This document shows positions 18,583-44,748 of a stretch of 64,000 nucleotides of DNA, in pieces. Both the position numbers and the translations under genes were made by a program. The notes beneath the pieces are model-generated. The model was given only the letters and a program-made list of their open reading frames with translations. It did not search any database and was not told where the DNA came from. The DNA is taken from positions 1-64,000 of the forward strand of contig JAUCBJ010003882.1 of assembly GCA_032718475.1 (NCBI GenBank), given 5' to 3'. The stretch comes from Nemertoderma westbladi. Lineage: Eukaryota; Animalia; Xenacoelomorpha. Numbering within the stretch: the stretch's first letter is position 1; each line of letters begins with the position of its first letter.

Positions 18583-18786
18583 GTGAATCCAATATTTACG
18601 AAATATCAGGAAATTACTTTGTAAAGTCGGATCTTACAGTGAATACAAACTACATCGTTTGTATTCAACTAGTTACCGACAAAGCATATTGTGACGATCC
18701 AAAAGGTCCTATACAATGTCAAGATTTCTCGACTGTTGATTCGAAAGTCAACACATATTTACTTTTGGCAGGATCCTTTGTAGCAG
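18583..18786 (+). CDS. LRR receptor exon 6 (FN3-like C-half LTVNTNYIVCI and start of TM helix)
   Basis: Overlaps ORF 18639-18833; phase 1 at both ends. Confidence 0.8.
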
Positions 18787-18869
18787 GTTTGTATAAAATA
18801 CATTTGCGTTCATACAATAGTTCAATATACTAGTGTAGTGTGTAAACGGTATCAGTTTATTAAGTTGGT

Positions 18870-18930
18870 TCAGGTTGACCGTGTGGTTACAGCGTCGGTC
18901 TTCCATGCGGGAGGTTGTGAGTTCGATCAA
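18870..18930 (+). mobile_element. tRNA-like (SINE head) remnant
   Basis: GACCGTGTGGTT A-box-like and GAGTTCGATC B-box-like motifs; no complete acceptor stem. Confidence 0.4.
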
Positions 18931-19322
18931 TTTCAGACTTTTCGGGTAACTTTTTCACTGGTGAACGTAAAATATTAGTAAGATAAAATAATATTCAAAT
19001 AAATGTTTAGTTGATTACTGGATGGTTTACTGACATATTATTCCGATATAATTATTTCTGTTGTGGTGCAACTATTCATTTGATATTCAACAAATTTACT
19101 TCACTATTTAACTTCGGGACCCCGTTCAAAAAAAAGTAGGGATCGGGACCGGGATTACATATTTCACCAAGATCCCGTTTTAACACTAATATATAGCGCT
19201 TCGTGGTATTAAATACATCCCGTAGTATTTTACATCTCAACCATTTCAAAGAAACAAACTTACAACATCATCACATCACACCAAATTCACCATCCAAATT
19301 TATTTGGATTTCTATGTTATAG

Positions 19323-19702
19323 GTGGACTGTCATTCTTACTTACATGTTGTGTATTTGCGGTGTTCAAAAAACAGAAGAAATTAAAGCGAAATCAGGTAT
19401 CCCAGCAACGCAACCAAATACCGCAGCCAATCAACACGAGATTCACCTACCAACGCGACAACACAATAGAACGTGTCAGCTCCCAATTGGACGGAACTAA
19501 CTACAGAGGCGGCTCCTTAATGGATAATACTACTTACGAAGGGGCCTCGGCAATGACGTACAACAACTTCCGAGCCTCATCCCCGTTGGGTAGCAGTAAT
19601 TACGCAGAAATTCCGCCGATGGAATCTTTCTACTTGTCGATGGATAGACCACCCACCTACCCCACGACCAACCGACCCCCACTCCCGTCTAACTCTACCT
19701 AA
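19323..19702 (+). CDS. LRR receptor exon 7 (end of TM, basic stop-transfer, Tyr/Pro-rich cytoplasmic tail); total spliced CDS 2388 nt (795 aa)
   Basis: ORF 19304-19702 reads GGLSFLLTCCVFAVFKKQKK; exon lengths sum to a multiple of 3. Confidence 0.85.
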
Positions 19703-20162: not shown

Positions 20163-23100
20163 GTTACGGCCCAATCGGTAAGATATCTGGCGGCCCCTAT
20201 AAGAAGTTACAGCCCAATAGGTAAGATATCCGGCGGCCCCTATAGGAAGTTACAGCCCAATCGGTATGATATCCACCGGCCCCCATAGGAAGTTACGGCC
20301 CAATCGGTAAGATATCCGACGGCCCCTATAGGAAGTTACGACCCTATCGGTAAGATATCCGGCGGCCCCCATAGGAAGTTACAGCCCAATCGGTAAGATA
20401 TCCAGCGTCCCCTATAGGAAGTTACGGCCCAATCGGTAAGATATCTGGCGGCCCCTATAGGAAGTTACAGCCCAATCGGTAAGATATCTGGCGGCCCCCA
20501 TAGGAAGTTACAGCCCAATCGGTAAGATATCCAGCGTCCCCTATAGGAAGTTACGGCCCAATCGGTAAGATATCCGACGGCCCCTATAGGAATTTACGGC
20601 CCCTATAGGAAGTTACAGCCCAATAGGTAAGATATCCGGCGGCCCCTATAGGAAGTTACGACCCTATCGGTAAGATATCCGTCGGCCCCCATAGGAAGTT
20701 ACAGCCCAATCGGTAAGATATCCGCCGGCCCCCATAGGAAGTTACGGCCCAATCGATAAGATATCCGACGGCCCCTATAGGAATTTACGGCCCCTATAAG
20801 AAGTTACAGCCCAATAGGTAAGATATCCAGCGGCCCCTATAGGAAGTTACAGCCCAATCGGTAAGATATCCGGCGGCCCCTATAGGAATTTACGGCCCCT
20901 ATAAGAAGTTACAGCCCAATCGGTAAGATATCCAGCGTCCCCTATAGGAAGTTACGGCCCAATCGGTAAGATATCTGGCGGCCCCTATAGGAAGTTACAG
21001 CCCAATCGGTAAGATATCCGGCGGCCCCCATAGGAAGTTACAGCCCAATCGGTAAGATATCCAGCGTCCCCTATAGGAAGTTACGGCCCAATCAGTAAGA
21101 TATCCGGTGGCCCCTATAGGAAGTTACAGCCCAATCGGTAAGATATCCGGCGTCCCCTATAGGAAGTTACGGCCCAATAGGTAAGATATCCGCCGGCCCC
21201 CATAGGAAGTTACGGCCCAATCGGTAAGATATCCGACGGCCCCTATAGGAATTTACGGCCCCTATAAGAAGTTACAGCCCAATAGGTAAGATATCCAGCG
21301 GCCCCTATAGGAAGTTACAGCCCAATCGGTAAGATATCCGGCGGCCCCTATAGGAATTTACGGCCCCTATAAGAAGTTACAGCCCAATAGGTAAGATATC
21401 CAGCGGCCCCTATAGGAAGTTACAGCCCAATCGGTAAGATATCCGCCGGCCCCCATAGGAAGTTACGGCCCAGTCGGTAAGATATCCGACGGCCCCTATA
21501 GGAATTTACGGCCCCTATAAGAAGTTACAGCCCAATAGGTAAGATATCCAGCGGCCCCTGTAGGAAGTTACAGCCCAATCGGTAAGATATCCGGCGGCCC
21601 CTATAGGAAGTTACGGCCCAGTCGGTAAGATATCCGACGGCCCCTATAGGAATTTACGGCCCCTATAAGAAGTTACAGCCCAATAGGTAAGATATCCAGC
21701 GGCCCCTATAGGAAGTTACAGCCCAATCGGTAAGATATCCGGTGGCCCCTATAGGAAGTTACGGCCCAGTCGGTAAGATATCCGACGGCCCCTATAGGAA
21801 TTTACGGCCCCTATAAGAAGTTACAGCCCAATAGGTAAGATATCCAGCGGCCCCTATAGGAAGTTACAGCCCAATCGGTAAGATATCCGGTGGCCCCTAT
21901 AGGAAGTTACAGCCCAATAGGTAAGATATCCAGCGGCCCCTATAGGAAGTTACAGCCCGATCGGTAAGATATCCGGCGGCCCCTATAGGAAGACACAGTC
22001 CAATCAGTAAGGGCGGCCCCCATAGGAAGTTACGGCCCCTATAGGAAGTTACGACCCTATCAGTAAGTTATCCAGCGGCCCCCATAGGAAGTTACGGCCC
22101 AATCGGTAAGATATCCAGCGGCACCTATAGGAAGTTACGGCCCAATCGGTAAGATATCCGACGGCCCCTATAGGAAGTTACAGCCCAATCGGTAAGATAT
22201 CCAGCGTCCCCTATAGGAAGTTACGGCCCAATCGGTAAGATATCTGGCGGCCCCTATAGGAAGTTACAGCCCAATCGGTAAGATATCCGGCGGCCCCCAT
22301 AGGAAGTTACAGCCCAATCGGTAAGATATCCGGCGTCCCCTATAGGAAGTTACAGCCCAATCGGTAAGATATCCGGCGGCCCCTATAGGAAGTCACAGCC
22401 CAATCAGTAAGGGCGGCCCCCATAGGAAGTTACGGCCCCTATAGGAAGTTACGGCCCAATCGGTAAGATATCTGGCGGCCCCTATAGGAAGTTACAGCCC
22501 AATCGGTAAGATATCCGGCGGCCCCCATAGGAAGTTACAGCCCAATCGGTAAGATATCCGGCGTCCCCTATAGGAAGTTACAGCCCAATCGGTAAGATAT
22601 CCGGCGGCCCCCATAGGAAGTTACAGCCCAATCGGTAAGATATCCGGCGGCCCCTATAGGAAGTTACAGCCCAATCGGTAAGATATCCGGCGGCCCCTAT
22701 AGGAAGTCACAGCCCAATCAGTAAGGGCGGCCCCCATAGGAAGTTACGGCCCCTATAGGAAGTTACGGCCCCTATAGGAAGTTACGGCCCAATCGGTAAG
22801 ATATCTGGCGGCCCCTATAGGAAGTTACAGCCCAATCGGTAAGATATCCGGCGGCCCCCATAGGAAGTTACAGCCCAATCGGTAAGATATCCGGCGTCCC
22901 CTATAGGAAGTTACAGCCCAATCGGTAAGATATCCGGCGGCCCCCATAGGAAGTTACAGCCCAATCGGTAAGATATCCGGCGTCCCCTATAGGAAGTTAC
23001 AGCCCAATCGGTAAGATATCCGGCGGCCCCTATAGGAAGTCACAGCCCAATCAGTAAGGGCGGCCCCCATAGGAAGTTACGGCCCCTATAGGAAGTTACG

Positions 23101-26100
23101 GCCCAATCGGTAAGATATCTGGCGGCCCCTATAGGAAGTTACAGCCCAATCGGTAAGATATCCGGCGGCCCCCATAGGAAGTTACAGCCCAATCGGTAAG
23201 ATATCCGGCGTCCCCTATAGGAAGTTACAGCCCAATCGGTAAGATATCCGGCGGCCCCCATAGGAAGTTACGGCCCAATCGGTAAGATATCCGCCGGCCC
23301 CTATAGGAAGTTACAGCCCAATCGGTAAGATATCCGGCGGCCCCTATAGGAAGTCACAGCCCAATCAGTAAGGGCGGCCCCCATAGGAAGTTACGGCCCC
23401 TATAGGAAGTTACGACCCTATCAGTAAGATATCCAGCGGCCCCTATAGGAAGTTACGGCCTAATCGGTAAGATATCCAGCGGCACCTATAGGAAGTTACA
23501 GCCCAATCGGTAAGATATCCGGCGGCCCCTATAGGAAGTCACAGCCCAATCAGTAAGGGCGGCCCCCATAGGAAGTTACGGCCCCTATAGGAAGTTACGA
23601 CCCTATCGGTAAGATATCAGGCGGCCCCCATAGGAAGTTACGGGCCAATCAGTAAGATATCCAGCGGCCCCTATAGGAAGTTACAGCCCAATCGGTAAGA
23701 TATCCGGCGGCCCCCATAGGAAGTTACAGCCCAATCAGTAAGATATCCCCCATAGGAATTTGGCCCCTATAGGAAGTTACGACCCTATCAGTAAGATATC
23801 CGGCGGCCCCCATAGGAAGTTACAGCCCAATCGGTAAGATATCCAGCGTCCCCTATAGGAAGTTACGGCCCAATCGGTAAGATATCCGGTGGCCCCTATA
23901 GGAAGTTACGGCCCAATCGGTAAGATATCCGGCGGCCCCCATAGGAAGTTACGGCCCAATCAGTAAGGGCAGCCCCCATAGGAAGTTTTGGCCCCTATAG
24001 GAAGTTACGACCCTATCAGTAAGATATCCGGCGGCCCCCATAGGAAGTTACAGCCCAATCGGTAAGATATCCGGCGTCCCCTATAGGAAGTTACGGCCCA
24101 ATCGGTAAGATATCCGGTGGCCCCTATAGGAAGTTACGGCCCAATCGGTAAGATATCCGGCGGCCCCCATAGGAAGTTACGGCCCAATCAGTAAGGGCAG
24201 CCCCCATAGGAAGTTTTGGCCCCTATAGGAAGTTACGACCCTATCAGTAAGATATCCGGCGGCCCCCATAGGAAGTTACAGCCCAATCGGTAAGATATCC
24301 GGTGGCCCCTATAGGAAGTTACAGCCCAATCGGTAAGATATCCAGCGTCCCCTATAGGAAGTTACGGCCCAATCGGTAAGATATCCGGCGGCCCCTATAG
24401 GAAGTTACGGCCCAATCGGTAAGATATCCGGCGGCCCCTATAGGAAGTTACAGCCCAATCGGTATGATATCTGGTGGCCCCTATAGGAAGTTACAGGCCA
24501 ATAGGTAAGATATCCAGCGGCCCCTATAGGAAGTTACAGCCCAATCGGTAAGATATCCGGCGGCCCCCATAGGAAGTTACGGCCCAATCGGTAAGATATC
24601 CGGCGGCCCCTATAGGAAGTTACAGCCCAATCGGTATGATATCTGGTGGCCCCTATAGGAAGTTACAGGCCAATAGGTAAGATATCCAGCGGCCCCTATA
24701 GGAAGTTACGGCCCAATCAGTAAGATATCCGGCGGCCCCTATAGGAAGTTACGGCCCAATCGGTAAGATATCCAGCGTCCCCTATAGGAAGTTACGGCCC
24801 AATCGGTAAGATATCCGGTGGCCCCTATAGGAAGTTACAGCCCAATCGGTAAGATATCCAGCGTCCCCTATAGGAAGTTACGGCCCAATCGGTAAGATAT
24901 CCGGCGGCCCCTATAGGAAGTTACGGCCCAATCGGTAAGATATCCGGCGGCCCCTATAGGAAGTTACAGCCCAATCGGTATGATATCTGGTGGCCCCTAT
25001 AGGAAGTTACAGGCCAATAGGTAAGATATCCAGCGGCCCCTATAGGAAGTTACAGCCCAATCGGTAAGATATCCGGCGGCCCCCATAGGAAGTTACGGCC
25101 CAATCGGTAAGATATCCGGCGGCCCCTATAGGAAGTTACAGCCCAATCGGTATGATATCTGGTGGCCCCTATAGGAAGTTACAGGCCAATAGGTAAGATA
25201 TCCAGCGGCCCCTATAGGAAGTTACGGCCCAATCGGTAAGATATCCGGCGGCCCCTATAGGAAGTTACGGCCCAATCGGTAAGATATCCGGTGGCCCCTA
25301 TAGGAAGAAACAGCCCAATCGGTAAGATATCCAGCGTCCCCTATAGGAAGTTACGGCCCAATCGGTAAGATATCCGGCGGCCCCCATAGGAAGTTACAGC
25401 CCAATCGGTAAGATATCCAGCGTCCCCTATAGGAAGTTACGGCCCAATCGGTAAGATATCCGGCGGCCCCCATAGGAAGTTACAGGCCAATAGGTAAGAT
25501 ATCCAGCGGCCCCTATAGGAAGTTACAGCCCAATCGGTAAGATATCCGGCGGCCCCCATAGGAAGTTACGGCCCAATCGGTAAGATATCCGGCGGCCCCT
25601 ATAGGAAGTTACAGCCCAATCGGTATGATATCTGGTGGCCCCTATAGGAAGTTACAGGCCAATAGGTAAGATATCCAGCGGCCCCTATAGGAAGTTACAG
25701 CCCAATCGGTAAGATATCTGGCGGCCCCTATAGGAAGTTACGGCCCAATCGGTAAGATATCTGGCGGCCCCTATAGGAAGTTACGGCCCAATCGGTAAGA
25801 TATCTGGCGGCCCCTATAGGAAGTTACGGCCCAATCGGTAAGATATCTGGCGGCCCCTATAGGAAGTTACGGCCCAATCGGTAAGATATCTGGCGGCCCC
25901 TATAGGAAGTTACGGCCCAATCGGTAAGATATCTGGCGGCCCCTATAGGAAGTTACGGCCCAATCGGTAAGATATCTGGCGGCCCCTATAGGAAGTTACG
26001 GCCCAATCGGTAAGATATCCGGCGGCCCCCATAGGAAGTTACGGCCCAATCGGTAAGATATCTGGCGGCCCCTATAGGAAGTTACGGCCCAATCGGTAAG

Positions 26101-28510
26101 ATATCTGGCGGCCCCTATAGGAAGTTACGGCCCAATCGGTAAGATATCTGGCGGCCCCTATAGGAAGTTACGGCCCAATCGGTAGGATATCTGGCGGCCC
26201 CTATAGGAAGTTACGGCCCAATCGGTAAGATATCTGGCGGCCCCCATAGGAAGTTACAGCCCAATAGGTAAGATATCCGGCGGCCCCCATAGGAAGTTAC
26301 AGCCCAATCGTAAAGATATCTGGCGGCCCCTATAGGAAGTTACGGCCCAATCGGTAAGATATCTGGCGGCCCCCATAGGAAGTTACAGCCCAATCGGTAA
26401 GATATCCGGCGGCCCCCATAGGAAGTTACAGCCCAATCGGTAAGATATCCGGCGGCCCCCATAGGAAGTTACAGCCCAATCGGTAAGATATCCAGTGGCC
26501 CCCATAGGAAGTTACAGCCCAATTGGTAAGATATCCGGCGGCCCCCATAGTAAGTTACAGCCCAATTGGTAAGATATCTGGCGGCCCCTATAGGAAGTTA
26601 CGGCCCAATCGGTAAGATATCTGGCGGCCCCCATAGGAAGTTACAGCCCAATCGGTAAGATATCCGGCGGCCCCCATAGGAAGTTACAGCCCAATCGGTA
26701 AGATATCCGGCGGCCCCCATAGGAAGTTACAGCCCAATCGGTAAGATATCCGGCGGCCCCTATAGTAAGTTACAGCCCAATTGGTAAGATATCTGGCGGC
26801 CCCTATAAGAAGTTACAGCCCAATCGGTAAGATATCCGGCGGCCCCCATAGTAAGTTACAGCCCAATCAGTAAGATATCCGGCGGCCCCCATAGGAAGTT
26901 ACAGCCCAATAGGTAAGATATCCGGCGGCCCCCATAGGAAGTTACAGCCCAATAGGTAAGATATCCGGCGGCCCCTATAGTAAGTTACAGCCCAATTGGT
27001 AAGATATCTGGCGGCCCCTATAAGAAGTTACAGCCCAATCGGTAAGATATCCGGCGGCCCCCATAGTAAGTTACAGCCCAATCAGTAAGATATCCGGCGG
27101 CCCCCATAGGAAGTTACAGCCCAATCGGTAAGATATCCGGCGGCCCCTATAGTAAGTTACAGCCCAATTGGTAAGATATCTGGCGGCCCCTATAAGAAGT
27201 TACAGCCCAATCGGTAAGATATCCGGCGGCCCCCATAGTAAGTTACAGCCCAATCAGTAAGATATCCGGCGGCCCCCATAGGAAGTTACAGCCCAATCGG
27301 TAAGATATCTGGCGGCCCCTATAAGAAGTTACAGCCCAATCGGTAAGATATCCGGCGGCCCCCATAGTAAGTTACAGCCCAATCGGTAAGATATCCGGCG
27401 GCACCTATAGGAAGTTACAGCCCAATCAGTAAGATATCCGGCGGCCCCCATAGGAAGTTACAGCCCAATCGGTAAGATATCCGGCGGCCCCCATAGTAAG
27501 TTACAGCCCAATCAGTAAGATATCCGGCGGCCCCCATAGTAAGTTACAGCCCAATCAGTAAGATATCCGGCGGCCCCTATAAGAAGTTACAGCCCAATCG
27601 GTAAGATATCCGGCGGCCCCTATAAGAAGTTACAGCCCAATCGGTAAGATATCCGGCGGCCCCCATAGTAAGTTACAGCCCAATCGGTAAGATATCCGGC
27701 GGCCCCCATAGTAAGTTACAGCCCAATCAGTAAGATATCCGGCGGCCCCCATAGGAAGTTACAGCCCAATCGGTAAGATATCCGGCGGCCCCCATAGGAA
27801 GTTACAGCCCAATCGGTAAGATATCCGGCGGCCCCTATAGTAAGTTACAGCCCAATTGGTAAGATATCTGGCGGCCCCTATAAGAAGTTACAGCCCAATC
27901 GGTAAGATATCCGGCGGCCCCCATAGGAAGTTACAGCCCAATCGGTAAGATATCCGGCGGCCCCCATAGGAAGTTACAGCCCAATCGGTAAGATATCCGG
28001 CGGCCCCTATAGTAAGTTACAGCCCAATTGGTAAGATATCTGGCGGCCCCTATAAGAAGTTACAGCCCAATCGGTAAGATATCCGGCGGCCCCCATAGTA
28101 AGTTACAGCCCAATCAGTAAGATATCCGGCGGCCCCCATAGGAAGTTACAGCCCAATAGGTAAGATATCCAGCGTCCCCTATAGGAAGTTACGGCCCAAT
28201 CGGTAAGATATCCGGCGGCCCCCATAGGAAGTTACAGCCCAATAGGTAAGATATCCAGCGTCCCCTATAGGAAGTTACGGCCCAATCGGTAAGATATCCG
28301 GCGGCCCCCATAGGAAGTTACAGCCCAATCGGTAAGATATCCAGTGGCCCCCATAGGAAGTTACAGCCCAATCGGTAAGATATCCAGTGGCCCCTATAGG
28401 AAGTTACGGCCCAATCGGTAAGATATCCGGTGGCCCCTATAGGAAGTTACGGCCCAATCGGTAAGATATCCGGCGGCCCCTATAGGAAGTTACGGCGCAA
28501 TCGGTAAGAT
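20163..28510. repeat. ~8.3-kb GC/CpG-rich satellite, 43-bp unit GTTACAGCCCAATCGGTAAGATATCCGGCGGCCCCTATAGGAA, with truncated sub-units and locally homogenised variant blocks
   Basis: Directly visible; unit spacing 20163 to 20206 = 43 bp. Confidence 0.98.
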
Positions 28511-30068
28511 ACCAAGCTGGCTTATCGGACGTTTTGGCAAAAATCGAGCACCGCCTAGTTTCTTGGTGGGACATTTTCGCGCAGACCTGGCAGATTAAAA
28601 TTATTTACACAAATAGCCACTGACACTATATATAATATCGATTATGCCAATAATATTTTCATTTAATAAATTTAGTTAACTGTCTTATTGAACAACGAAA
28701 GAAATTTAATATTAATAATAAATTAATCATTTTTTCCGATGGGAAGGCTCTTTCCCCTAGTAGTATCATCCACAACCTACCTATCATGCCCACAGTCTTT
28801 TTAAACTATCATTTATAAAATTACAAAAAGCGACGGCCCAAGAAGCGTTCGGTGCATATATTCGCGCGGTATTTCACGAGGTGTCGATGTGGTAATTAGT
28901 CAATAACTACATTAAACCATTTGTCAAATTTTTGTATTTGTTAGATTCAGAAGATAGCGTAGGTATTTTGAAACTACGCGTAGGTGCTACGCGTAGCTAC
29001 GCATAGGTGCTACGCGTAGCAGTCCTGATAACAATGAAATTAGTCATTCTAACTTTAAGTAGTCTTTGTATATGAAATATTTTTTACAGTGATGAATTTA
29101 ACAGAGTTAAATTTAAGCTAAAAAATATTTTGTATTCATTAGATTCAGAAGTTAATTTGACATTCCAGCTTTAAGTACTTAACCTTGTGTATGAAATATA
29201 ATTAAGAGTATATTAAGATATTAAGTTATTAAGTTAACGTTATACATTAAGAGATATTTAACTTTCGGAATCTATTTAACCTTCAACGAATTAAGTTTTA
29301 AATTACGTTTTAAGTACATAACGCAGTGGATAGGCAGTGTTAAAAATGTATTGAAGATTATTATGCTTAGTTTATTTAGGACGTTGGACAAAGGAAAAGT
29401 ACCGTATAGATGTGTCTATATAAAAAGGACTGTTGTTCTCTATGTATAAACTGTTTATATAATTTTGTTTCTGTTTCCTGAGAAGTTCGGTCAGTAATAA
29501 ACTAACTAGAATAAGTATCGTAAATATCACTGTTATCATAGAAACAACACAGTAAACATCAAACAAATCACTCGCGTATCCACATTTAAAATAAAATGAA
29601 AGTTTACGTGTCCAACAATTTCAACTTTATTTACCCAAATAAACCGAAGATAAAATTAATCAAAACTTTGAGTATTTATAGTCAGTATGATTTCAGATTA
29701 ACCACTGTGTCCAACTGTCCATGGTTATGTGGAAAAAGTAAATTTAATACGTAAAATATAAAATTTGTTAATTGATATAATTATTAAAATAAACATTTGC
29801 ACCATAATTAATTAAATATAAATACTAAATACCGCGCTATATATTGCTAGTCTTCGTCAAACATGTATTGAGTGAAACAAAATTAACAGAAAAATTAATG
29901 TTATGAAGTTATAATATGTTAGAAAGTTATAATGTAATGTTAAAGTTATGAAGGCCAATAGATTGAACATTTATGAATGTTATGTTTTTTTAGTTGTTAG
30001 TTTAATGATCACCTTGAATCGTTAAAAATCTACAATTTATGTAGGTTTCCACTGTTTTCTATACTGTT

Positions 30069-33000
30069 TTAAATTTCTTCCACACCAATACAACTCTGAC
30101 ACCGACACTGGGAATGCGCTTCCACTATTGACCGCTGGGCGGCATACTGCGGTCGATTATCCTGGTCACACGTCATCGCGATCTCCGCGTCGAAAACTGA
30201 CGTTGCCACGCAACCGACCGGACAACGTAAGACCCCCTGCTGCGAGTCACACCCTGCACGCCCGCCGAACGTTGCGTTGCGTAATGCGTGCGGCGCGGGC
30301 TCGCACTCGCACCGATGACAGACCCGCTGCTGGCGGGAGGGCGGGCAACCGGTACCGGTACCGACGGCAGAGACAGCCCGATCGCGATACTGCGAACCGG
30401 AGCCGCAACTGGCGGCGTCGCAGACGCTCCACTCGCCCCAACCGCCCACCACGCAAGAAAACTCAGGGGAAGCCACCCCGAGGCAGCAGACGGAAACAGC
30501 GACAGTAGCGTGAGAGTACAACCCATCGTTAACCATCACGTGAAACTTATCCTCAACCATCATGTTTACCTCGTTGCCTTGGAGACACGCCGCAGGTTCG
30601 TAACGGATAATACCGTCGCCGATAGCCGCGTTCATGTTGTCATAGGAACCGCAGAAGGTTGAATCGTATCCACCGGGTCGGTATGACACCATGGTGACAT
30701 CATGTTCGGTTTGTGTATCCAAGGTAACTGAGCCGGAATTCGGTTGATATATTGTTAGACAAACCTGGACCTCCTTTATTAGTAATTGGTTTTCGATACG
30801 AATATTCCGGAGTGAACTTATAATATTCGCATTTACATTCTGTTTTGAGTGGATTATAACTGGTTGAATATGAGTTATAGAATAGCGGGAGATTTGAATA
30901 TTAGCTGTGAACTGCCTGGATTGGCTAACCACCACCCCTTGGTTAGCCAATAGCTGAGCCGTTTTAGGTACACCAATGGAAATGTTGATGCTAGCCAAAC
31001 CCATAAAGTTAACCAAAGGGGTGAATTTCATAGAGGCTATTGCTTCACGCACTAAGGGAGCAGGACCTGCGAAGCACATGTTGCTGGGGTAACCCCCATG
31101 CACCCCCATGTGATCAAAATAAAGGCGAAGCTCGTCCGGCATTGTCATGGAAACAAGTCCGTGATTGGACGTTACATTAACATGGAGTATACCGGGAACA
31201 TCTTCCCCTGGTAAGGACATTCTGACACCTACCGGTTCCAGAGTACTACCCTGATTTATACTCCTCAGCATGGATGTAACCTCGACACCTTCAACACTAC
31301 CGATGCACTGTGATTTTGCTCCGACGGCCCAAACTGTTAATATTTCGTGTATAATATTTCCATCTCCCCTGTAAACGACTATTCTTATTGGTTCAACGCA
31401 GCTAGAACTGTCGCTCAAACGAATTTCACTTTCTTCTAGTGCGCGATTGCATTCCTCTGTGGTGTTGCAGGTAAATTCCAACAACAATGGGGAGCTGCCA
31501 CCGGTTAATATCAGCTGATCTGCGGTAATGCGAAACCGACGTTGAAAGTTGGAGGCTCGCGAGCGGATGGTGAGAATTGAAAGGGTTTTGATATCATCGT
31601 CGTTTTGAAAATAAATAAAGAGATTTGATGGAATTAAACTGGTAGGCGGTTGACTCGCCGTTACATCAATTATCACTTCCATTTTTGTAGGCTCAATATC
31701 AACTGTCTCTTCGCATACTGTGGCATCATTAGTTACCATAGCTTCTTCCACGGTCACCTCCAACTTACTTGTCCAATCGGAACACCTGGTCTCCATCCAG
31801 TAAGGGGGGAGAATTCGGGGTTGCCAAGCCCACACCTTGGTAGGGAAAGGGTACCAGAATCGTGGGTACCAACTCGGCCACACATTGGGGTGACGGGGGC
31901 CACGCGCCTCATATCTGTCTGCCTGCCCCGGTTCCATCCACAGCGAGGTCGGAAGGGCCCAGCTCGGAGGCTTCGCCCATTCATCGCACCACGGGACATA
32001 CAACAGACTAGATAGAGCCGAGTTGACGCTGGTAAGCGAGCCGTGAAAGACTAAACGTTTTTTCCCGTTGCAGCCATTATCAACACCCTCGGCCATGTTA
32101 TTTTCGAAAAACTGGTTGAAATCTCCATTGTGATCAATATGGTGCCGCACCCCGGCACCATAACTTCCGTTTATAATGGAGTACTGTTTCTCAAATATGA
32201 TATCGGTCAGCGGTTGATCAGTATTAACCCAAAGAACTCCACCCTTATCGAGTTCTAGAGTAACCTTATAACTCGCCTTATCTATACCATCATCATCTCC
32301 TATCTTTAGATTGTCTATAAGAACGGCCTGACCTTCAGTGGTTGTGACTCTCCCGCCTCGTAGTCGTTCAATAAACACGGGAGCGTCGCTACTAGAACTT
32401 ATAAAGACACTCAACGTTTCAGTAACGACAGACTTTTCATTAAGATTCTCCAACTCCTCTGCTATCGCGTGGACATTGAAGCAGAACTTACCGTGGTCGT
32501 TAGAACGAGGTTTTATTTTAAGACCAATAAGATCGCTTTCCGACAAGTTGCCCAGATGAGTTTTGCTCAGTTCTGTGTTATCCGACTTAGTAAACAGCCA
32601 ACCAGTAGGTATGTGAAGAGGACAAGAACAAACCGCGTCTCTACAGCTGAGAGGCTCCCAACAGTCGCACAGTTTAACGGATAATGACTCCGAGCCGTCG
32701 TTGTCATAGAGACATGCGGCTATGACGTCAGAAAATTCTTCGCCTTCTTGAATGTAAACGGTTTGAACCCTTAAAGCGGGGGCGTCCACCGAAGGTTTGA
32801 CGTCAATCGTAACGGTGGCAACAGGTGACGTATCAAACTCATCGCTAACGCGGTAAGCAAACTGAACGCGACCGGAATAGTGGGCAATAGGAACGAATAT
32901 AAACTCCCCCGTGGCAGTGTCGACTAATCGGATGTTAGGACTGCCCGCCACCAGCTGGTACCGCGTATACAACGCTGTGTGATTGGCTGTCGCACGTGGA

Positions 33001-33164
33001 CAAGCCGACATCCGGGCGTGCAGTTGGGCGTCCTCGTAGGAATGCAGCAGGATGTCCAATGCACGAATACTGGGGCCTGGTTGGCATGGCAGCGTCGCCC
33101 CGAGGCTGGTTGCCAGGAACAATACAACTAGTAAAATGTATGCTGGGCGGCGTGGTTTTATCAT
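30069..33164 (-). CDS. Intronless 1031-aa secreted protein: signal peptide, several bacterial-type Ig/cadherin-like adhesin repeats, C-terminal TSP1 and Cys-rich region
   Basis: Hydrophobic N-terminus; GEFIFVP...SGRVQFAYRVSD...VATVTIDVKPSVDAP (Big_9/cadherin-like); DNDGSESLSV...IP.G...LIGLKIKP; GSLTSVNSALSSLLYVP; CVVGGWGEWSVC...CGSGSQYRDR (TSP1). Confidence 0.88.
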   Translation of the reverse strand: MIKPRRPAYILLVVLFLATSLGATLPCQPGPSIRALDILLHSYEDAQLHARMSACPRATANHTALYTRYQLVAGSPNIRLVDTATGEFIFVPIAHYSGRVQFAYRVSDEFDTSPVATVTIDVKPSVDAPALRVQTVYIQEGEEFSDVIAACLYDNDGSESLSVKLCDCWEPLSCRDAVCSCPLHIPTGWLFTKSDNTELSKTHLGNLSESDLIGLKIKPRSNDHGKFCFNVHAIAEELENLNEKSVVTETLSVFISSSSDAPVFIERLRGGRVTTTEGQAVLIDNLKIGDDDGIDKASYKVTLELDKGGVLWVNTDQPLTDIIFEKQYSIINGSYGAGVRHHIDHNGDFNQFFENNMAEGVDNGCNGKKRLVFHGSLTSVNSALSSLLYVPWCDEWAKPPSWALPTSLWMEPGQADRYEARGPRHPNVWPSWYPRFWYPFPTKVWAWQPRILPPYWMETRCSDWTSKLEVTVEEAMVTNDATVCEETVDIEPTKMEVIIDVTASQPPTSLIPSNLFIYFQNDDDIKTLSILTIRSRASNFQRRFRITADQLILTGGSSPLLLEFTCNTTEECNRALEESEIRLSDSSSCVEPIRIVVYRGDGNIIHEILTVWAVGAKSQCIGSVEGVEVTSMLRSINQGSTLEPVGVRMSLPGEDVPGILHVNVTSNHGLVSMTMPDELRLYFDHMGVHGGYPSNMCFAGPAPLVREAIASMKFTPLVNFMGLASINISIGVPKTAQLLANQGVVVSQSRQFTANIQISRYSITHIQPVIIHSKQNVNANIISSLRNIRIENQLLIKEVQVCLTIYQPNSGSVTLDTQTEHDVTMVSYRPGGYDSTFCGSYDNMNAAIGDGIIRYEPAACLQGNEVNMMVEDKFHVMVNDGLYSHATVAVSVCCLGVASPEFSCVVGGWGEWSVCDAASCGSGSQYRDRAVSAVGTGTGCPPSRQQRVCHRCECEPAPHALRNATFGGRAGCDSQQGVLRCPVGCVATSVFDAEIAMTCDQDNRPQYAAQRSIVEAHSQCRCQSCIGVEEI

Positions 33165-33817
33165 ATTAACTGTATTTTAGTTCTTATAATGGAAATGGGA
33201 TCTTAAAAAATAATTAGATATGTCTTAAAATGTTTATCAACAAAAGAAAATGATTACCCACATATAAACTACATACTTTATAAACTGATCAGTTTGATTT
33301 CGTCTACTTTACGGCTGGGATGTGGTTTAAGGACACGGGAGTAAAGGTGTGTCACCGTCCCAATTAGTATATCCGGGGTATTGTATTGCAGATATAGGTC
33401 CAACACTCGTTGGGATTTCGAACAAACACAATCGGAGGGTAGCGCCCAAGTCAGTGTCGTTGGATTAATCTATGTATCAAAGGATACGTTTAAATATATT
33501 GTTTGACTCCGGTATCCAATTCGTTAGATTATGTTGCGTCATTAGGCTTGTTTGCAGGGGTTGTCAACAAGTGCCTCCACTCCCCTTATCAGTTTATAAT
33601 AAAACTTTATCGCCACAAAGTCCTCATTTGAATTTGGATTATGTACATGAAATACGCAATCATGCCTAGCTTAAGAATATACATGTCCCGTAATAAAATA
33701 GTGTAATTTTTTTATGACACATGGTTTTTTATGTAATATGGGGGAGGGGGTTCGTTATGTGGGGTAGGGGAAGGGCATTTAAGTTGGTTAGAGATGATGA
33801 TGATTTATATTATTAAT

Positions 33818-36800
33818 TAAGGGTGTGCCGGATATCCGGCCGGATTTCAATTTTTGGCCGGATTATCTTTTCAATTAATTGTTGAAAAATTTACAATTAT
33901 ATAATGTAAATAGACCAAATAAAATATATATATATAGAGGAATATTACTGTAAATAGTAATATTCAAAAAAAATTTTTTTATCAAAATAAATTTTCTTTT
34001 AATTTCAAACAAATTTAAACATAAGCAAATACAATGGAATACAATAAATTTTTTTTCATAGTTGGTATCATATTCATTAATATTATGAATATGATAAAGT
34101 CCAAAGCAGAGCTATCATCAGGGCAGTGTTAACAAGGAAGCTTATTAAGCTTTGGGGTAGGGCCTTCGCACGCTTGGGGTCCTCCCAAAGCGTAGATTGG
34201 GATTGGGGAAATTACAGAGTACCAAGTGATATTGAATTGCCTATACAGTATCAGTATATTATTGTTACTTGTTAGTGAGTAGAGTAGTGCACTGTGTTCC
34301 TTCTTGTTCAACCAGACCAGACTACAGAACTACAAGTACTACTGGTATTAAATGCTATTACACAGTTTTTGTTAGTTATATGCTTCGCTCAGTTGGTCCT
34401 TCGTTATTACATTACGTTTAGTTAATAATTTTCGTGATTATTTCATCCAAATCAGAAATTTGAATTGCCTCATAGTCAGGTCAGGTCCCCAGACCTGCTA
34501 CCACTATGGCAGTAATGTGGTACTACCTGTATCTGTCAGCCCAGTAGGGCAGACCCGATAAGCATAGCCTATTCATTATTTAGTTGATCAAGAGTGGGTT
34601 GGTTTTAGCCCCGTCAACTAAATAAGTCATTGAGGGCTATAGCGCCTAGGGCACCATTGAAGGCAAAGGCTTGATACGCATCTACAATAGAGATGATACA
34701 CGCCCCGGCCTGTCTATACTGGATGTTCCTCTACCAGTGTTAGGTAACCTAACCCAGGAGGCACACTTGGTTCAAGGTGTAACAAAAGGACCCTACAGTC
34801 GGCAGCAGGGCTGTAGGCCATGGATAGGCGGAAGGTAATCAACCAATGGCAAGACATGCTGACAAGGTCGGCGGAAGGTAATCAACCAACGGCGACCTGC
34901 TGCGACGACGCTTGTAGGAGTTGCGACCTCAAGCGGTTTACTCTCGCAACTGAAAGATATGAGTATGAGAACCCTCCAGGAGAAATACCGGCTCGGTCGA
35001 CGCCCGGGTCAACAAGGACCGCGTCCCTCAGTGGTACACCAGGCTGGGGTCGATAAATTGGCTACTGGAATAGAAGACAGAGAAGAAAGAAGAACCAACC
35101 TGTTGAAATGTAAAAAGACACTAAAGATTGCTACAATGACCGCACGCACGCTGAAAGCACATACCAAACAGGGTGACATGGTCGCTATGGCAATGGAATA
35201 TAACATCGACATCATCTGCATCCAAGAACATCGGATTTGTCATGAAGACACTGCCATGAAGTACAATGACATTGGAAATGGATGGACGTTAGTAACAAGC
35301 TCAGCAGTAAGTAACTCGGCCGATGCATCAATTGGTGGAGTATGAATTCTGCTAAGCCCATTTGCACTTTAAGACCATAAACAACATAGAATCTATAAAT
35401 TCCAGGATTATGATGGCAACATTTGATGGGAATCCCAAGACAACAGTTATATGTTGCTACAGTGCAACCAATGCCTCAGAGCCAGAACAAGCAGTCAAGT
35501 TTTATGAAGATCTGACTGGACTTATAAAGGACATTCCGAAACACAATGTTAAAGTCATTGCTGGTGACCTGAATGCGCAAATTGGCCCAGAAGCCATCAA
35601 GGGTTACACCTATAACACCAGTTCTAACAGAAATGGGTACTTACTTTTAGACCTAATGGAAGAATGTGAATTGATACCAACAAACAACACATTCGAAAAG
35701 ATTAAGGGGAAGCTATGGACCTTTCAATACCCTAATGGAACCAAAGCACAACTGGATTACATCCTTATAAACAAAAAGTAGAGAAACAGCATGATCAACT
35801 GCGAGGCATACAGCTCGTTCAACCTAATTGGTTCGGACCACAGAATTGTGACTGCAGAGATCAGACTCAGTTTGAGAGCCAGCAAACCCAGGACAAGCAA
35901 GCAAATCAACTATGACTGGGAGAAACTCATAACTGACAGTGCAGTAAAGGATGCTTACACAGTAGAAGTTCAAAACCGCTTTGAAGCACTTCAGTCAATG
36001 GATGAAGACCAATCCACCGATTCAATATACCAGAATATAATAACAGCCCACAAGGAATCAGCTAAGAGGCATATCCCCCAGAAACCCAAACGAAAACAAT
36101 ATGTGCCATGGCAAAACTCTGCTGAGGTTACTTGTAAGAGAGAAGATCTTAAGATAGCCTACAAAGTTAAAACCGAACAGCCAACAACCGAAAACATTAA
36201 CAAGGTTGAGAAAGCTAAGGACGATCTTAAATTGGCCTACAACATCAGCCAGGAAAAGTACATACAGGATAAAACTGAAGCAATTACAACTGCTCACATA
36301 CAGCAACAATCCAGACTTACCTGGCAAACTGTAAATGAGGTATCTGGTCGGAAAAGTTGTGCAAAGGGGCGCCTCAAAGCCGATAGTCCTGAAGAACGTG
36401 TTGGGAAGTGGAAACATCACTTCAGCAACTTGCTTGGGCAGCCACCAAACATCGAGGTCAGCCCTACAAGGAAAATATATGACAAGACACTCTATAGAAA
36501 CAGGGGACTTCACACCTGCCGAACTCCAAAGAAGCATCAAAAGCATGTCCAATAATAAAGCGAGTGGATTAGATGAAATCCCAGCGGAGGTATGGAAAAC
36601 CGGAGTGCTAAACAGACCATTATTGAATGTTTGCAACCGGATGTTAAAAGGGGAAAAGCCACCACCACTTTGGACTAAAGGTCAACTAAAGCCTCTCCCC
36701 AAGAAAGGAGACCTCGGCATACCAACAAACTATGGTGGGATCTGTCTGCTTGTGGTAGCTGCCAAAATATACAATAAAATGATTCTATATAGGATTAGGC

Positions 36801-38385
36801 CTCACATAGAGAAACTACTGCGTAAGAGACAAAACGGATTTCGACCAAGTAGATCAACAATAGCTCAGATACTTGCACTACGGAGACTGATTGAAGGAAT
36901 TAAGTCAAAGAATATCCCCACAGTCATGACTTTTGTGGACTTCAAGAAGGCATTCGACTCCATCCATAGAGGTAAAATGCTTGAAATACTAAGAGCTTAT
37001 GGAATACCAGAAGTAATTGTTGATGGCATTGGATTGCTATATTGTGACACAGAAGCGCAGGTACTCTCACCAGATGGTGAAACTGAGTTTTTCTCAATCC
37101 TGGCTGGCGTACTACAAGGTGACACATTAGCACCATTACTATTTGTAATTGTGCTGGATTACGCAATGAGGACGGCCACAAAGGGTGAAGATCTGGGATT
37201 CACACTTCAAGAACGCAGAAGTAGTAGATATCTGGCAACTACATTCACAGACACCGACTTTGCGGATGACATCGCCCTGCTCTCTAATACGCAGATGCAC
37301 AGCTTCTACTAAATAAAGTGGAGAGGGCTGCTAAGGAGGTTGGATTGCATATAAATGCTACCAAGACGAATTCATGACCTTTAATGTTCATGGAAACTTG
37401 ACAATCAATGATAATAATCAACTAAGGAAGGTCGACGACTTCCAGTACCTTGGATCATGGATAGAGAGTAGCAAAAAGGACATAGAAGTTAGGAAAGCAA
37501 AGGCTTGGGTAGTTCTATCAAAAATGGATACCATCTGGAAATCAGATCTCTCCAGGCAACTGAAGACTAAGTTCTTTCGAGCCACAGTGGAAAGTGTATT
37601 TTTATACGGGGGTGAGACCTGGGCATGGACACTGACTAAATCACATGAACAACGAATTGATGGTTGCTACACATGAATACTAAGGGCAGCCCTAAACATC
37701 AGCTGGATACAGCACATGACAAACGCCGAGCTTTATGGTACAATACCACCTGTATCAACCACCCTCCGTGAACGCAGATTAAGATTCAGTGGGCACTGCT
37801 GGCGAAGTAAAGACGAGGTCATACCAGATCTACTTCTCTGGCAACCAACTCATGGAAAGCGTAGTCGTGGACGACCTGCCATAACATATATAGATCAACT
37901 TGAAAGGGATACTGAACTTGGGAGAAACGACATTGCGACAACTATGGAGAATCAGGAAGCCTGGAAGGATCTCATTTCCACTGTCCGAGTTCGCTCGACC
38001 TAGTAGTAGTAGTAGTAGTAGTAGAATTGCCTCATTTGAAAACATTAAAAGTTTAATTTAATAGTTTAATTGACCAGTTTATATATTCGACAGGCAATTT
38101 AGAAAATCTAGTAAATCCAATTTAACTCAGAGAGAATATAAAAACTACAGCTATTATTACTTCGTCTATTTTTCAATTTGCACTTTAATTCATTTCATTT
38201 TCATATTTAACATTTAACAATATCAAATCAATCAATTATATCAAATCGACGTAGGCTATGGTGCAAACGGTTATGGTGTTAAAACAAATCCAGCAATGGC
38301 CGGAATTCCGGCCGGATTTTTTTTACAATTCCGGCTCCGACTCCGGCCTGGCCGGTTTGAAAATAGTCAATCCGGCACATCCCTA
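33818..38385. mobile_element. Non-autonomous hAT-like element interrupted by the RTE insertion
   Basis: 16-bp TIR TAAGGGTGTGCCGGAT / ATCCGGCACATCCCTA (14/16), subterminal CCGG repeats, 8-bp TSD TTATTAAT/CTATTAAT (7/8). Confidence 0.8.
34474..38023 (+). mobile_element. Full-length RTE-clade LINE (APE-RT single ORF, now inactivated)
   Basis: TSD GAATTGCCTCAT (34462-34473 and 38024-38035), (TAG)n tail starting at the stop codon, IQE/GDLN/SDH/FADD/YLG motifs, C-terminal RGRP; stops at 35343, 35779 and 37674 plus frameshifts. Confidence 0.96.
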
Positions 38386-39405
38386 CTATTAATTAATAAT
38401 GTTCATATAGTTTCTAATAGGAATATTGATTATTATAAGTTAATATGCATAACAAACAAGGAAGAGATAACGATAGCAGAAATTATTTAAACAAAGTTGA
38501 GATTTTGCACAATTAAAACGACCTTTTAAAACAGTAAATGGTTCGATAAAACTAACCCTTTTACATTCGGTTAAAAAAGTGGATACAGTCTGCAGTAATA
38601 TAAGAAAACGCTTAATAATACTCATGATTACACGGACCCACCCACAGCCCATTTATTCTAGAGTGTTTTATAATTTTATAAGCGCCTTAAGAAGGTCTTT
38701 ATCGAAATTGCACCGTATCGCCGCCATTCTGCACATTAGTCGTGATATATTTACCATTAGAAAGCATATATGATGCAAGGATTCCAACTATGTAACGTTC
38801 AAAGTCTGTGTTTGTTGAGAAACAGCTGGTATATGGGCGTCAAAAGATTTTTTAATTAAAACATGCTAAACTAAAAGCATTCTAAGGATGTTACCAAATA
38901 AATGTTGTATGGTAATATTATTATATGACGGTGAGATATGGTCGATCCGCTGTCCGGCCGAAAACACAGTCACCGATAATGGATAATATATCATTTTGGT
39001 TTGGTTAAGGGATTATAAAAAAAATGTATATAATTATATTTCGTAAAGTATGTCTACGTGAAGGAGGTCTATAGAAATGCGACAGTCTCCATTATTACAT
39101 CCAAACAATTTTAGTTTTTCAACTTTTCGGTTTTCCGTCAATAGTGATTCGCGTTACAAATTTTTTCTTAACTTAATTTTTTCAGTAAACTTTTTGAATT
39201 AATGTTTAAAACTATAGCTTGAAATATATTAACAAATATAGATAATACCACATTGGCATATTAAAAGGTTTAGGGTAATACCAAAACTACATAACTTTCT
39301 TGCGTTGAGTATAAAATAAATGACTTTGGCATGATTAGTCTGCACTTTGGTCTGAATAAATTTGCAATGGATTAATCTTCTATATAAAGCTTACATGAAA
39401 CTAAC

Positions 39406-39604
39406 CAGGAAAAATCCAAGATGGTTTCCTTCGATACGCCCCCAACGGTTTAAATGCCGTATGACTCTGAGTGAATGCGTTTAGAGTTCTGTACTTGTCT
39501 GCCAGGGTGTCTAGAATGATCTGAATGTCCTCGCGACTTTGCCAATCCGAAACGACATTGGGGTGGATTCGATCAGGTTTAACAAATTCGATGAACTTTT
39601 CCAG
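39406..39604 (-). CDS. DCLRE1C: Artemis exon (LEKFIEFVKPDRIHPNVV...FKPLGAYRRKPSWIFP)
   Basis: Translated by hand; matches human IKDFLSYLCP..YPNV and YKPLG; phase 0 in and phase 1 out. Confidence 0.85.
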
Positions 39605-40901: not shown

Positions 40902-41075
40902 CTCACTAAGGGAGGGGTGCATAGAATAAAGCAATCGGAACGTGTTGGCTTTAGAATCTTTTACAACCAAGTTCTTCATAGATGTTGATGTTGAGAACCA
41001 CAAGGTGGTCGGCTTGATTGTTAAAATATTCTTGCTGTCGTACGAGGGTTGACAAGGTAATCCAATCCGTTTTTG
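40902..41075 (-). CDS. DCLRE1C: Artemis exon (GLPC...TIKPTTLWF...YSMHPSLSE)
   Basis: Matches human LPC...SIKPSTMWF...FSFHSSYSE (beta-CASP motif B His); AG/GT boundaries, 174 nt. Confidence 0.92.
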
Positions 41076-41204: not shown

Positions 41205-41315
41205 CTTAGGTTCCCATTTACAGGCGTGTATTTGTGTTTTCTGGTCGCAGGTTACAAACGACATAATCTCTGCGCATTGGCTGTAAAGCTGCCACGTATA
41301 GGGGCTTACGTGAAC
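41205..41315 (-). CDS. DCLRE1C: Artemis exon (VHVSPY...TQIHACKWEPK)
   Basis: Matches human VHV...TQIHACRHPK; 111 nt, phase 0 at both ends. Confidence 0.92.
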
Positions 41316-41490
41316 CTAAAAACAAATGTCAGTGGAATAGGAGTGAAATTCGATGAAATGACATTGATATGCTCAATATAATAATAATGCAAGAGTCACT
41401 ACCTGATCATGAAAACATCAAAATCATCAACACAACTAGACCAACTAATAATTAGTGGAGCAAACTATAACCGAACAGTTACTAGCAAGG

Positions 41491-41752: not shown

Positions 41753-44082
41753 CAGCAACTGGAATGGAATTTGCAGCACACTAGTAATTACTAAACTTAT
41801 AACCCCCGGATTTACAAGGCGTGGGGCGTGCTACGGACCTTGATTCACCCAAATCCATGACAAACTCGACTAGTGGGTCTTTTATACTTTTACATTTTAG
41901 TGTAAATAACAGGTTGAAAACACAAAAAGTGGGTTATTCTGAAAATTTTGACTTTCACAAAATACGACTTTGTATCATTCGAAAGCTTTTAAAACGCTGA
42001 ATACAATGGTGGATAGTTTCCCAGCAGGAATATTATTATGTAAATGGGTAAATATATGTAAAAAAAACAATCACCGGTCCCAAGTGTAACATTAATGTGT
42101 AACAGCAGATTAACCAATAACATGGCCTGGTACAAATGTGTAACACGTTGTCCATTGGGTAACGCAATGTGTGAGCCAATCAGAATTGGTTCAAATGTTA
42201 GACGTCTAATTTCCACAAATTCCACAGTGTAACATTGCACAGTGTTACACCATTTTGGTACACTGCGGAAAATATTTCGAAAGTAACTCGTAATCTAAAA
42301 TTAATTATATCTTAGTCATTAGAGTATAATGCTCCTTGAATGCTTTAAGTGATCTTTGCAAAAATGGTGTACTGTATCTGTACACTGGTGAAATCTCGCT
42401 CGACGAGAGCGACCAGCTGTCTGTCCGATTGAGGATGAAAAGTTGCAAAACTAAAAATAACTGCTCGAGTTTTATTATTGCGCACACTAGTAGCTTTGAT
42501 TTGATACCAAAAACTTGGAAATTGGTTGAAAAATGGCGGAGGAGTAGTGTTTCAAAAATGAAATACCATTCCGTGATAATTGCCTTTAAAGTTTGAACCT
42601 TTCCGCGCAAAATGTCTGTAAATAATGTGAGAATGTCTGTTAATATATATAAAGCAACTCACAAAACCACAAAACCATTTTAAGATTATTGCTATGGGGA
42701 TTTTCCTGGTCATTGATTTTATTTCTGAGGTCAGATTTCACTTTTAATGAAATCTAGTTCGTCTGTCTGTCGGTCTTTCTGACTATCCGACAATCTGTCC
42801 GTTAAATATAAGAAAAGAGCACCTAGCATCTAGTTAAAAGTTTAGTTATAGGAGTTTACCTGATCGCAGAATTAATTTCTAGTGTAAGATTTAACATTTT
42901 GATGACTTCCAAAATGTCTGTTTGGCTGTCGGTTATATTTTGACGGACAGACTGACAGGCATACAGACAGAAAAGACTTGGCCAAATTTGAATACTGATA
43001 TCAGAAATAAAGTCACGGACCAAGAAAACCCATATAAGAAATGTTTTAGAAATATAGTATATATGTTTTCTAGATTGTTTTGGAGACATACTGACGGACT
43101 GACTGACAGTAAAACTGACGGACAGCCATATGTCGAGAAGTAAGACAGATCTTGCTAAACGGTTTACATACTTGGAATCTTGATAAAAATATGCTCCAGC
43201 TAGATGAAATAAATTTTTTTTTTAAAGCCATTGCCAGTACCCATTGTAAGTATACTTACAGATACTATGCCTTGTAGTAGTATACTTACATATACTATGC
43301 CTTGTAGTAGTATACTTACATATACTATGCTTTGTAGTAGTATACTTACAGATACTATGCCTCGTAGTAGTATACTTACAGATACTATGCCTTGTAGTAG
43401 TATACTTACAGATACTATGCCTTGTAGTAGTATACTTACATATACTATGCCTTGTAGTAGTATACTTACATATACTATGCCTTGTAGTAGTATACTTACA
43501 GATACTATGCCTTGTAGTAGTATACTTACAGATACTATGCCTTGTAGTAGTATACTTAAAGATACTATGCCTTGTAGTAGTATACTTACAGATACTATGC
43601 CTTGTAGTAGTATACTTACATATACTATGCCTTGTAGTAGTATACTTACAGATACTATGCCTTGTAGTAGTATACTTACAGATACTATGCCTTGTAGTAG
43701 TATACTTACAGATACTATGCCTTGTAGTAGTATACTTACATATACTATGCCTTGTAGTAGTATACTTACATATACTATGCCTTGTAGTAGTATACTTACA
43801 GATACTATGCCTTGTAGTAGTATACTTACAGATACTATGCCTTGTAGTAGTATACTTACATATACTATGCCTTGTAGTAGTATACTTACAGATACTATGC
43901 CTTGTAGTAGTATACTTACAGATACTATGCCTTGTAGTAGTATACTTACATATACTATGCCTTGTAGTAGTATACTTACAGATACTATGCCTTGTAGTAG
44001 TATACTTACATATACTATGCCTTGTAGTAGTATACTTACATATACTATGCCTTGTAGTAGTATACTTACATATACTATGCCT

Positions 44083-44589
44083 TGTGGGGCGAGCCACGAA
44101 GTTGGCGGAGCCTTAGCGAATTGACACTGTTAGGGGGTGGGTCAATTTATGCAAATAGTTGTCGTCGTCGTCGTCGTCGTCGTTGTCGTCGTCGTCGTTG
44201 TCGTCGTCGTTACGATTTTGACATGCTAATAACTTTGTCGGATTTAAAGCTGCCAAGTTGAAAATTTGTAGGTATCAATATGAGCAAAAGTTGAGATTTT
44301 TGAGAGACTTTCAGACACCATCAGTGCAATGGTCTCCCGCTAGAGGGCCACATGTCTAAACATTAAATGCCCTCCCATTTCTTTGCTTTTAATCCATTTA
44401 AGCTGAAACTTGGCAGATATGTATTAGACCATTAGCTGTGACTTTCAAAGGAGGCGAATCCATCTGCAGTTCTCCAGTCTGCCGCTAGAGGGCCAACGTG
44501 ACTATTTGCATAAATTGACCTACCCCCTAACAGTGTCAATTCGCTAAGGCTCTGCCAACTTCGTGCTGCGCGAAGTCCCCACTTCGTGT
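44083..44589 (+). mobile_element. 507-bp member of the TGT-bounded family (copy C) with ~65-bp subterminal inverted repeats and a (GTC)n tract, inserted in the satellite
   Basis: Same termini as copy A; 44095-44159 is the inverted repeat of 44501-44565. Confidence 0.9.
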
Positions 44590-44748
44590 AGTAGTATACT
44601 TACAGATACTATGCCTTGTAGTAGTATACTTACATATACTATGCCTTGTAGTAGTATACTTACAGATACTATGCCTTGTAGTAGTATACTTACAGATACT
44701 ATGCCTTGTAGTAGTATACTTACATATACTATGCCTTGTAGTAGTATA

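Follow-up and report, generated by a model that had tools for sequence, protein, structure and literature searches.

An expressed, intronless gene of Nemertoderma westbladi belongs to an old and apparently undescribed animal protein family with microbial-adhesin-type repeats

The 64,000-nucleotide stretch of Nemertoderma westbladi DNA analysed herein (assembly GCA_032718475.1, contig JAUCBJ010003882.1, positions 1 to 64,000; the "window") carries on its minus strand, at 30069-33164, a stop-free open reading frame (ORF) of 1031 codons that encodes a protein of 1031 residues. We found that this ORF is an expressed host gene and, almost certainly, one member of an ancient animal family transmitted by vertical descent, in which domains of microbial adhesin type are joined to a eukaryotic spondin-type TSP1 domain. 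The interpretation that we put forward, tentatively, is that the ORF is an intronless copy of an old animal gene whose product would be a secreted rod of six beta-sandwiches, of ancient microbial-adhesin origin, acting as an extracellular binding scaffold. A preliminary description of the window had proposed a horizontally acquired and domesticated adhesin; the host gene and its microbial-type repeats stand, whereas a recent acquisition does not, since inheritance has been vertical at least since the split between amphioxus and the ambulacrarians.

The uninterrupted 3.1-kb frame reported in that description far exceeds the longest stop-free frame in 200 shuffles (238 codons), and the single coding exon is covered by unspliced RNA contigs. 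Its base composition, said to be GC-rich at the ends and AT-richer in the middle, is roughly so, with a GC content per 100-codon block of 0.56 in the first block, 0.67 in the block holding TSP1 and 0.41-0.54 elsewhere. The GC content of third codon positions (GC3) is 0.51, within the host range (0.43 in a nearby LRR gene and 0.65 in an AMPK-gamma ORF). The predicted signal peptide (about residues 1-22, 33099-33164, minus strand) was called from a hydropathy scan, which gave an N-terminal hydrophobic peak in 4/4 family proteins, and from an N-terminal helix in the structural model.

The stretch is present in four sequencing runs (X1-X4) from three studies. X1 and X2 may be the source of the window itself, X3 comes from the same sample as X1, and X4 from a separate sample and study; X4 is entered as "DNA?" and no run is recorded as RNA, but its splice joints show X4 to be RNA. 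A 2968-nt contig of X4 links three exons (41205-41317, 40902-41075 and 39406-39604) that are separated by GT-AG introns, with zero depth in several intronic bins; all three are Artemis (DCLRE1C)-like, and metallo-beta-lactamase motifs lie further upstream. The same contig extends 1386 nt beyond 39406 and none of this extension lies on 29300-39405, which places the ORF within an intron of the Artemis-like gene, on the same strand, and bears out its reported position in an animal intron. An in-phase acceptor at 8078, followed by 684 open codons, is likely the next Artemis-like exon and would close the intron (8079-39405, minus strand), the donor end of which is given by RNA. We also considered whether the Artemis-like gene might splice into the ORF, through an in-frame acceptor at 31051, and rejected this, as X4 shows no such joint. 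The X4 RNA runs across the whole ORF without splicing, from 33301 to 29603 (minus strand, plus 23 unplaced letters of the 5' contig) and ends 23 nt past an AATAAA poly(A) signal at 29626-29631. Twelve ORF variants are listed between X4 and the window, seven synonymous and five non-synonymous (pN/pS 0.22, p 0.011, a small sample). About half of the X4 depth (53 vs 53) takes an in-frame skip of 804 nt (31103-31906, residues about 420-687), whose ends are not GT-AG and share short microhomology, and which deletes the core of a Trp/Pro-rich loop, the fourth domain and half of the fifth; it may be a deletion allele, a template switch or an odd splice.

These data bear directly on the alternative that the ORF is a recent, host-specific bacterial transfer or lies on a contaminant contig. 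The gene has no introns, exceeds its flanks in GC content and adjoins a hAT-like element, and contig depth over it is below that of the neighbouring unique contigs in X1 (33 vs 39-70) and X2 (23 vs 33-40), as such an alternative would have it, but not in X3. Against it, the gene and its AT-rich flanks sit within single contigs at 29457-34026 in X1 and 29457-34033 in X2, both possible sources of the window, with zero differences (X3 has 13 gap letters within 29457-30989); transcription to a poly(A) signal is seen in the separate sample and study; motif scans for relatives confirmed 0/84 metagenome, 0/27 viral and 0/41 GTDB contig candidates; and collinear orthologues exist in three phyla. The orthologues and the RNA contigs refute this alternative, to which we give practically no credence, and the misassembled contaminant raised in the preliminary description is not borne out: the gene is confirmed as an expressed host gene.

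The orthologues were retrieved with phmmer against 1.84 billion representatives, which gave 5,306 matches, and the results that follow rest on the best 150 of these. Four of the 150 match over a long stretch and all are from invertebrate deuterostomes: a sea star (Acanthaster LOC110974087), a sea urchin (Strongylocentrotus LOC753895), an acorn worm (Saccoglossus LOC100369989) and amphioxus (Branchiostoma lanceolatum CAH1266116.1, "LTF"). They are unnamed or misnamed, none having been functionally named by its source. Among the other 146, 145 match best around the first domain and one at residues 204-316. Twenty-four of the 150 were looked up by name and, besides the four animal proteins, all those with a named organism were bacterial; no non-deuterostome animal was among these 24, and no whole-length relative from outside the deuterostomes was found above about 117 bits. 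The four orthologues are collinear with the host protein from end to end (29-32% identity over 991 columns) and keep its domain order, its conserved cysteines and its Trp/Pro core. A five-sequence tree groups star with urchin (support 100) and then with acorn worm (92), leaving amphioxus and the long-branched host outside, and follows the species tree. Collinear orthologues in these four animals speak against a recent or host-specific transfer. Word-index protein searches missed the animal orthologues, two of them returning microbial Big_9 proteins only and a third giving 0/20 candidates, and their blanks are uninformative on distribution. In the literature searched by identifiers and descriptors the family was not described, while supplements, or proteomics tables under other identifiers, may list it. 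The conserved family, which combines repeats of microbial type with an invariant loop, is real and, apparently, undescribed in print.

The preliminary description also counted the missing introns in favour of a transfer, a point that we do not uphold. The star isoforms show a difference of one residue following position 22, one urchin fragment starts at the same place, and the last residues of another urchin fragment look like a donor site that was read through; judged from the proteins only, the orthologues therefore appear to have introns, one of them near codon 22 in star and urchin, and the intronless host copy is likely secondary. In the same window an AMPK-gamma-like ORF (62360-63646, minus strand, four CBS domains) is also intronless, so the absence of introns carries no transfer signal here. 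The AMPK-gamma gene usually has many introns in animals, which, taken with this ORF, suggests that intron loss or retrocopying is common in the host genome.

The domain architecture was read from Pfam, profile comparisons and an AlphaFold2 model built from a nine-row alignment (mean pLDDT 56; a single-sequence fold at pLDDT 34.7 was not used), and comprises, as predicted, a signal peptide, six beta-sandwiches (D1-D6), TSP1 and a cysteine-rich tail, all on the minus strand. D1 (residues 30-125, 32790-33077) is a Big_9/tandem-95-type sandwich by Pfam, profile and structure searches, and the Big_9/cadherin-like motif noted earlier holds there (Big_9 at 72-120, E 4.8e-9, with Cadherin_5 and weak Cadherin_4 at the N-terminus). 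D2 (126-257, 32394-32789) is an adhesin repeat of "D.DGSE" type with an inserted five-Cys loop. D3 (about 258-502, 31659-32393) and D5 (623-762, 30879-31298) are helix-insert-type repeats, D3 with insertions; D4 (about 503-622, 31299-31658) and D6 (763-896, 30477-30878) have the same predicted topology, and the model gives each of D3 to D6 a strand-helix-strand motif. The TSP1 domain (902-954, 30303-30461) matches Pfam TSP1_spondin at 904-954 (E 2.9e-7, 31 bits, below the 41-bit cut-off) and has PDB sequence matches to F-spondin and TSP1; the reported junction of microbial-type repeats with a eukaryotic domain is supported. The C-terminal module (30072-30302) is modelled as two hairpins with seven conserved cysteines, the spacing of which is fixed in 5/5 family members and looks cystine-knot-like, though one knot cysteine short; the tail had no Pfam or PDB sequence match, and no search confirmed the likeness. 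Domain-by-domain Pfam and PDB sequence searches were otherwise blank or weak, and Foldseek of the whole model against PDB and viral libraries gave generic beta-sandwich chains only (TM about 0.1).

Four of the six sandwiches, D1, D2, D3 and D5, match microbial adhesin repeat types by sequence. Two profiles were built from motif-defined sets in fetched non-family proteins (34/54 repeats from 13 proteins and 13/17 repeats from nine; iterated versions drifted to Big_9 and were not used). By hhalign, D2 matched the first set at 98.3%, and D3 with its inserts removed (96.4%) and D5 (80.7%) matched the second, so that the two motifs proposed earlier, D.DGSE.LS...IP.G...L.GL.I.P and L.F.G....VN.AL..L.Y.P, are real by profile comparison. 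The best scores of the two microbial profiles on family members were 53.5 and 19.0 bits, whereas none of 104 controls, shuffled or reversed, exceeded 4.6 and 3.9 bits. The "repeats" of the preliminary description are accordingly of microbial types, but they form no tandem array, being six strongly diverged domains of three types (pairwise profile probabilities <=15%). Its view that cysteines were added is supported, with 22 in residues 30-896 and none in the 5,836 residues of the microbial sets. As regards the calcium-dependent rigidity of RTX adhesins, D108 and D290 are invariant in the family, and the DGSE motif is retained in 3/5 members. Metazoan cadherin, CSPG or FRAS-type repeats, which it named as the competing identity, were not seen: 0/5 members match Cadherin (PF00028) or Cadherin_3 (PF16184) at E up to 10.

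Microbial transfer is, on balance, the somewhat probable origin of these repeats, and any transfer is ancient. In its favour, the animal copies in a D2 tree all fall on one side of a branch from 34 microbial repeats (100/98). A bacterial donor is possible though short of an even chance, and a protist donor is less likely again; look-alikes of D5-D6 in diatoms, oomycetes and euglenozoans mean that the donor need not be bacterial. The rival is that no transfer took place and that the repeats are old eukaryotic domains, which came down vertically, by retention or shuffling, from a unicellular forebear and disappeared from most animal lineages. It draws on the Atlas, in which diatom, oomycete and euglenozoan clusters outrank the bacterial one for D5-D6 (0.93-0.94 vs 0.92, leads without alignments), on the D2 tree, in which the animal stem is long and no donor lineage is picked out, and on the superposition of D6 (residues 762-897) on residues 140-258 of human B4GALNT1 (PDB 9H6J, Z 10.6, rmsd 3.0, 114 aligned, 10% identity; limits of this non-catalytic domain from PMC12217166). 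With the B4GALNT1 domain, a structure of the helix-insert type of microbial adhesin repeat may in fact already have been solved; a bacterial repeat of this type, searched against PDB by sequence, gave neither B4GALNT1 nor any true match. We consider retention unlikely, as it would require many losses, the whole-length matches are confined to deuterostomes within the scope given above, and all three repeat types occur together in one bacterial adhesin, a Pseudomonas retention-module RTX adhesin that was the only such case among 180 scored non-family proteins. A search of D5 against plasmids returned nothing significant.

The best-conserved segment of the family is a 69-residue Trp/Pro-rich loop from C393 to C461 (31782-31988, minus strand; 9 W, 13 P), with 45-66% identity against 12-44% elsewhere, an invariant YPRFWYPFP core and no match among 209 non-family proteins. 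In the model it sits before the last two strands of D3, flanked by two conserved cysteines. The amphioxus gene model carries four transferrin lobes (1428 aa, about residues 266-1680 of that model) beyond query residue 271, close to where D3 has its first strand, as well as a His-rich insert; the transferrin block may be a genuine split-domain fusion, or else annotation has merged a nested gene into the model. Echinoderm orthologues have a WAP-like insert in D6. RTX adhesins hold out ligand-binding modules from split Ig domains (PMC12077191), projecting them either behind the first strand or ahead of the final two (bioRxiv 10.1101/2025.09.30.679566). The loop and the transferrin block of the amphioxus model thus lie one each at the two kinds of split-domain insert site, from which we read the protein as a putative secreted rod that would present a sticky aromatic loop and lineage-specific payloads; the loop itself is of low confidence in the model.

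From this analogy we infer a function and a mechanism. The protein has about an even chance of being a surface or mucus binding scaffold. It would be exported by the animal secretory route, its rod stabilised by the added disulfides and by partly retained acidic calcium-type motifs, with TSP1 and the cysteine-rich tail anchoring or oligomerising it. The disulfide-closed Trp/Pro loop would be held out from D3, in the manner of RTX split domains, and could bind a glycan, a lipid or a microbial surface, and payloads that differ by lineage (the WAP-like insert of echinoderms and the transferrin lobes of the amphioxus model) may suggest a mucus or surface-coat setting. A bolder version, which we regard as doubtful, is that the tip with which a microbial adhesin presents its ligand modules was taken up by an early animal, and that its split-domain logic has lasted for more than half a billion years, with D3 still a socket for payloads (a Trp/Pro loop in every lineage, and in amphioxus also the four transferrin lobes), the protein serving as a microbe- or particle-trapping glue in the ciliary mucus of early deuterostomes and being lost in vertebrates. 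Whatever its origin, the protein might instead act in development, as a modulator of the matrix or of signalling comparable to CCN proteins or SCO-spondin, in which TSP1 and the knot-like tail would bind growth factors or polymerise and the rod would be a spacer. The succession of TSP1 and a two-hairpin Cys module with fixed spacing would fit, as would a family that appears low-copy and long conserved, unlike fast-expanding defence genes. We think this improbable, given that conservation peaks in the Trp/Pro loop and not in the tail, that the tail lacks a sequence match and that the inserted payloads are defence-type modules.

Several observations weigh against the scaffold of microbial-adhesin origin that we favour. 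The profile seeds came from proteins already matched by the query, which makes the test partly circular, and for D4 and D6 hhalign gives no sequence match to the microbial sets (0.07% and 4.6%). In the Atlas, the four highest-ranked clusters for D5-D6 are all protist; by structure alone D1-D2 resemble the cadherins of animals no less than domains of microbes or phages (Z 8-10), and a domain of similar fold in human B4GALNT1 means that the fold is not foreign to animals. Since the best 150 of 5,306 matches were seen, weaker animal relatives could be hidden. The model is weak, with pLDDT <50 in the Trp/Pro loop; the transferrin fusion rests on a single gene model; and about half of the X4 depth takes the skip that lacks the core of the conserved loop.

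The Artemis-like gene spans 6022-54370 (minus strand), and its 31-kb intron also holds satellites, transposons and, on the opposite strand, a receptor gene of LRR-Ig-FN3 type (12765-19702). The hAT-like element next to the ORF (about 33818-38386) has terminal inverted repeats of 16 bp and a target duplication of 8 bp that is nearly perfect, and contains a broken LINE with reverse-transcriptase frames. A 43-bp satellite (about 186 copies) occupies 20163-28511, and a 30-bp satellite (214 copies, 43249-49702) starts exactly at an Artemis-like exon end and appears to include a splice-donor-like GTAAGT variant.

The family is open to expression and knock-down work through its sea urchin, acorn worm and amphioxus orthologues, its invariant loop is a defined target for ligand discovery, and whether a lineage has or lacks it can serve as a phylogenetic character. 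The branch of the host suggests a position outside echinoderms, hemichordates and lancelets; if that is so, the gene would be a rare shared character for placing the host lineage. Our interpretation, if true, also bears on the proposal that early deuterostomes were shaped by feeding with mucus and by defence at the body surface.

Among known systems, CCN proteins and SCO-spondin are likewise secreted and likewise place TSP1 before a terminal Cys-rich two-hairpin module, a cystine knot in their case, but they have IGFBP, VWC or VWD domains, none of which was found in a Pfam scan of the family, and the tail here is one knot cysteine short by its spacing. Against metazoan cadherin or CSPG/FRAS1 families, whose Pfam repeats are not matched, the fold of D1-D2 scores Z 8-9, tied with microbial and phage domains. 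A further likeness is to bacterial RTX/T1SS adhesins with split domains, such as Lap of Aeromonas hydrophila (PDB 9CSE; PMC12077191), which share Ig-like extender repeat types (D1, D2, D3 and D5 by sequence, D4 and D6 by predicted topology only) and insert positions; D2 superposes on the 9CSE split domain with Z 8.5, rmsd 3.0, 109 aligned residues and 24% identity. These adhesins carry a retention module, an RTX beta-roll and a T1SS signal, none of which Pfam or NCBIfam gives in 5/5 family members; the family protein has instead an N-terminal signal peptide, many cysteines, six diverged domains and an end made of TSP1 and a Cys tail. The B4GALNT1 non-catalytic domain (PMC12217166) is the best structural match to D6, but has no sequence support, and the family lacks a glycosyltransferase domain. 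Within the family, the host copy differs from its orthologues, which appear intron-bearing and which add the WAP-like insert in echinoderms and the four transferrin lobes and His-rich insert in the amphioxus model. A precedent is the set of deuterostome novelties with microbial relatives of Simakov et al. 2015 (PMC4729200, from its accessible text). The examples named there are enzymes, whereas the family here consists of mosaic and likely extracellular proteins, for which no vertebrate gave a match over the whole length, and by the shared exon-intron structure used there the host copy has no introns, the star and urchin intron being read from proteins. Like those genes, however, the family is common to ambulacrarians and a chordate, its nearest non-family matches, among those looked up, are microbial, and its locus lies among ordinary animal genes, nested in the Artemis-like gene with the LRR and AMPK-gamma genes nearby; if our interpretation is true, it would extend this class of microbe-like deuterostome genes from enzymes to structural extracellular parts.

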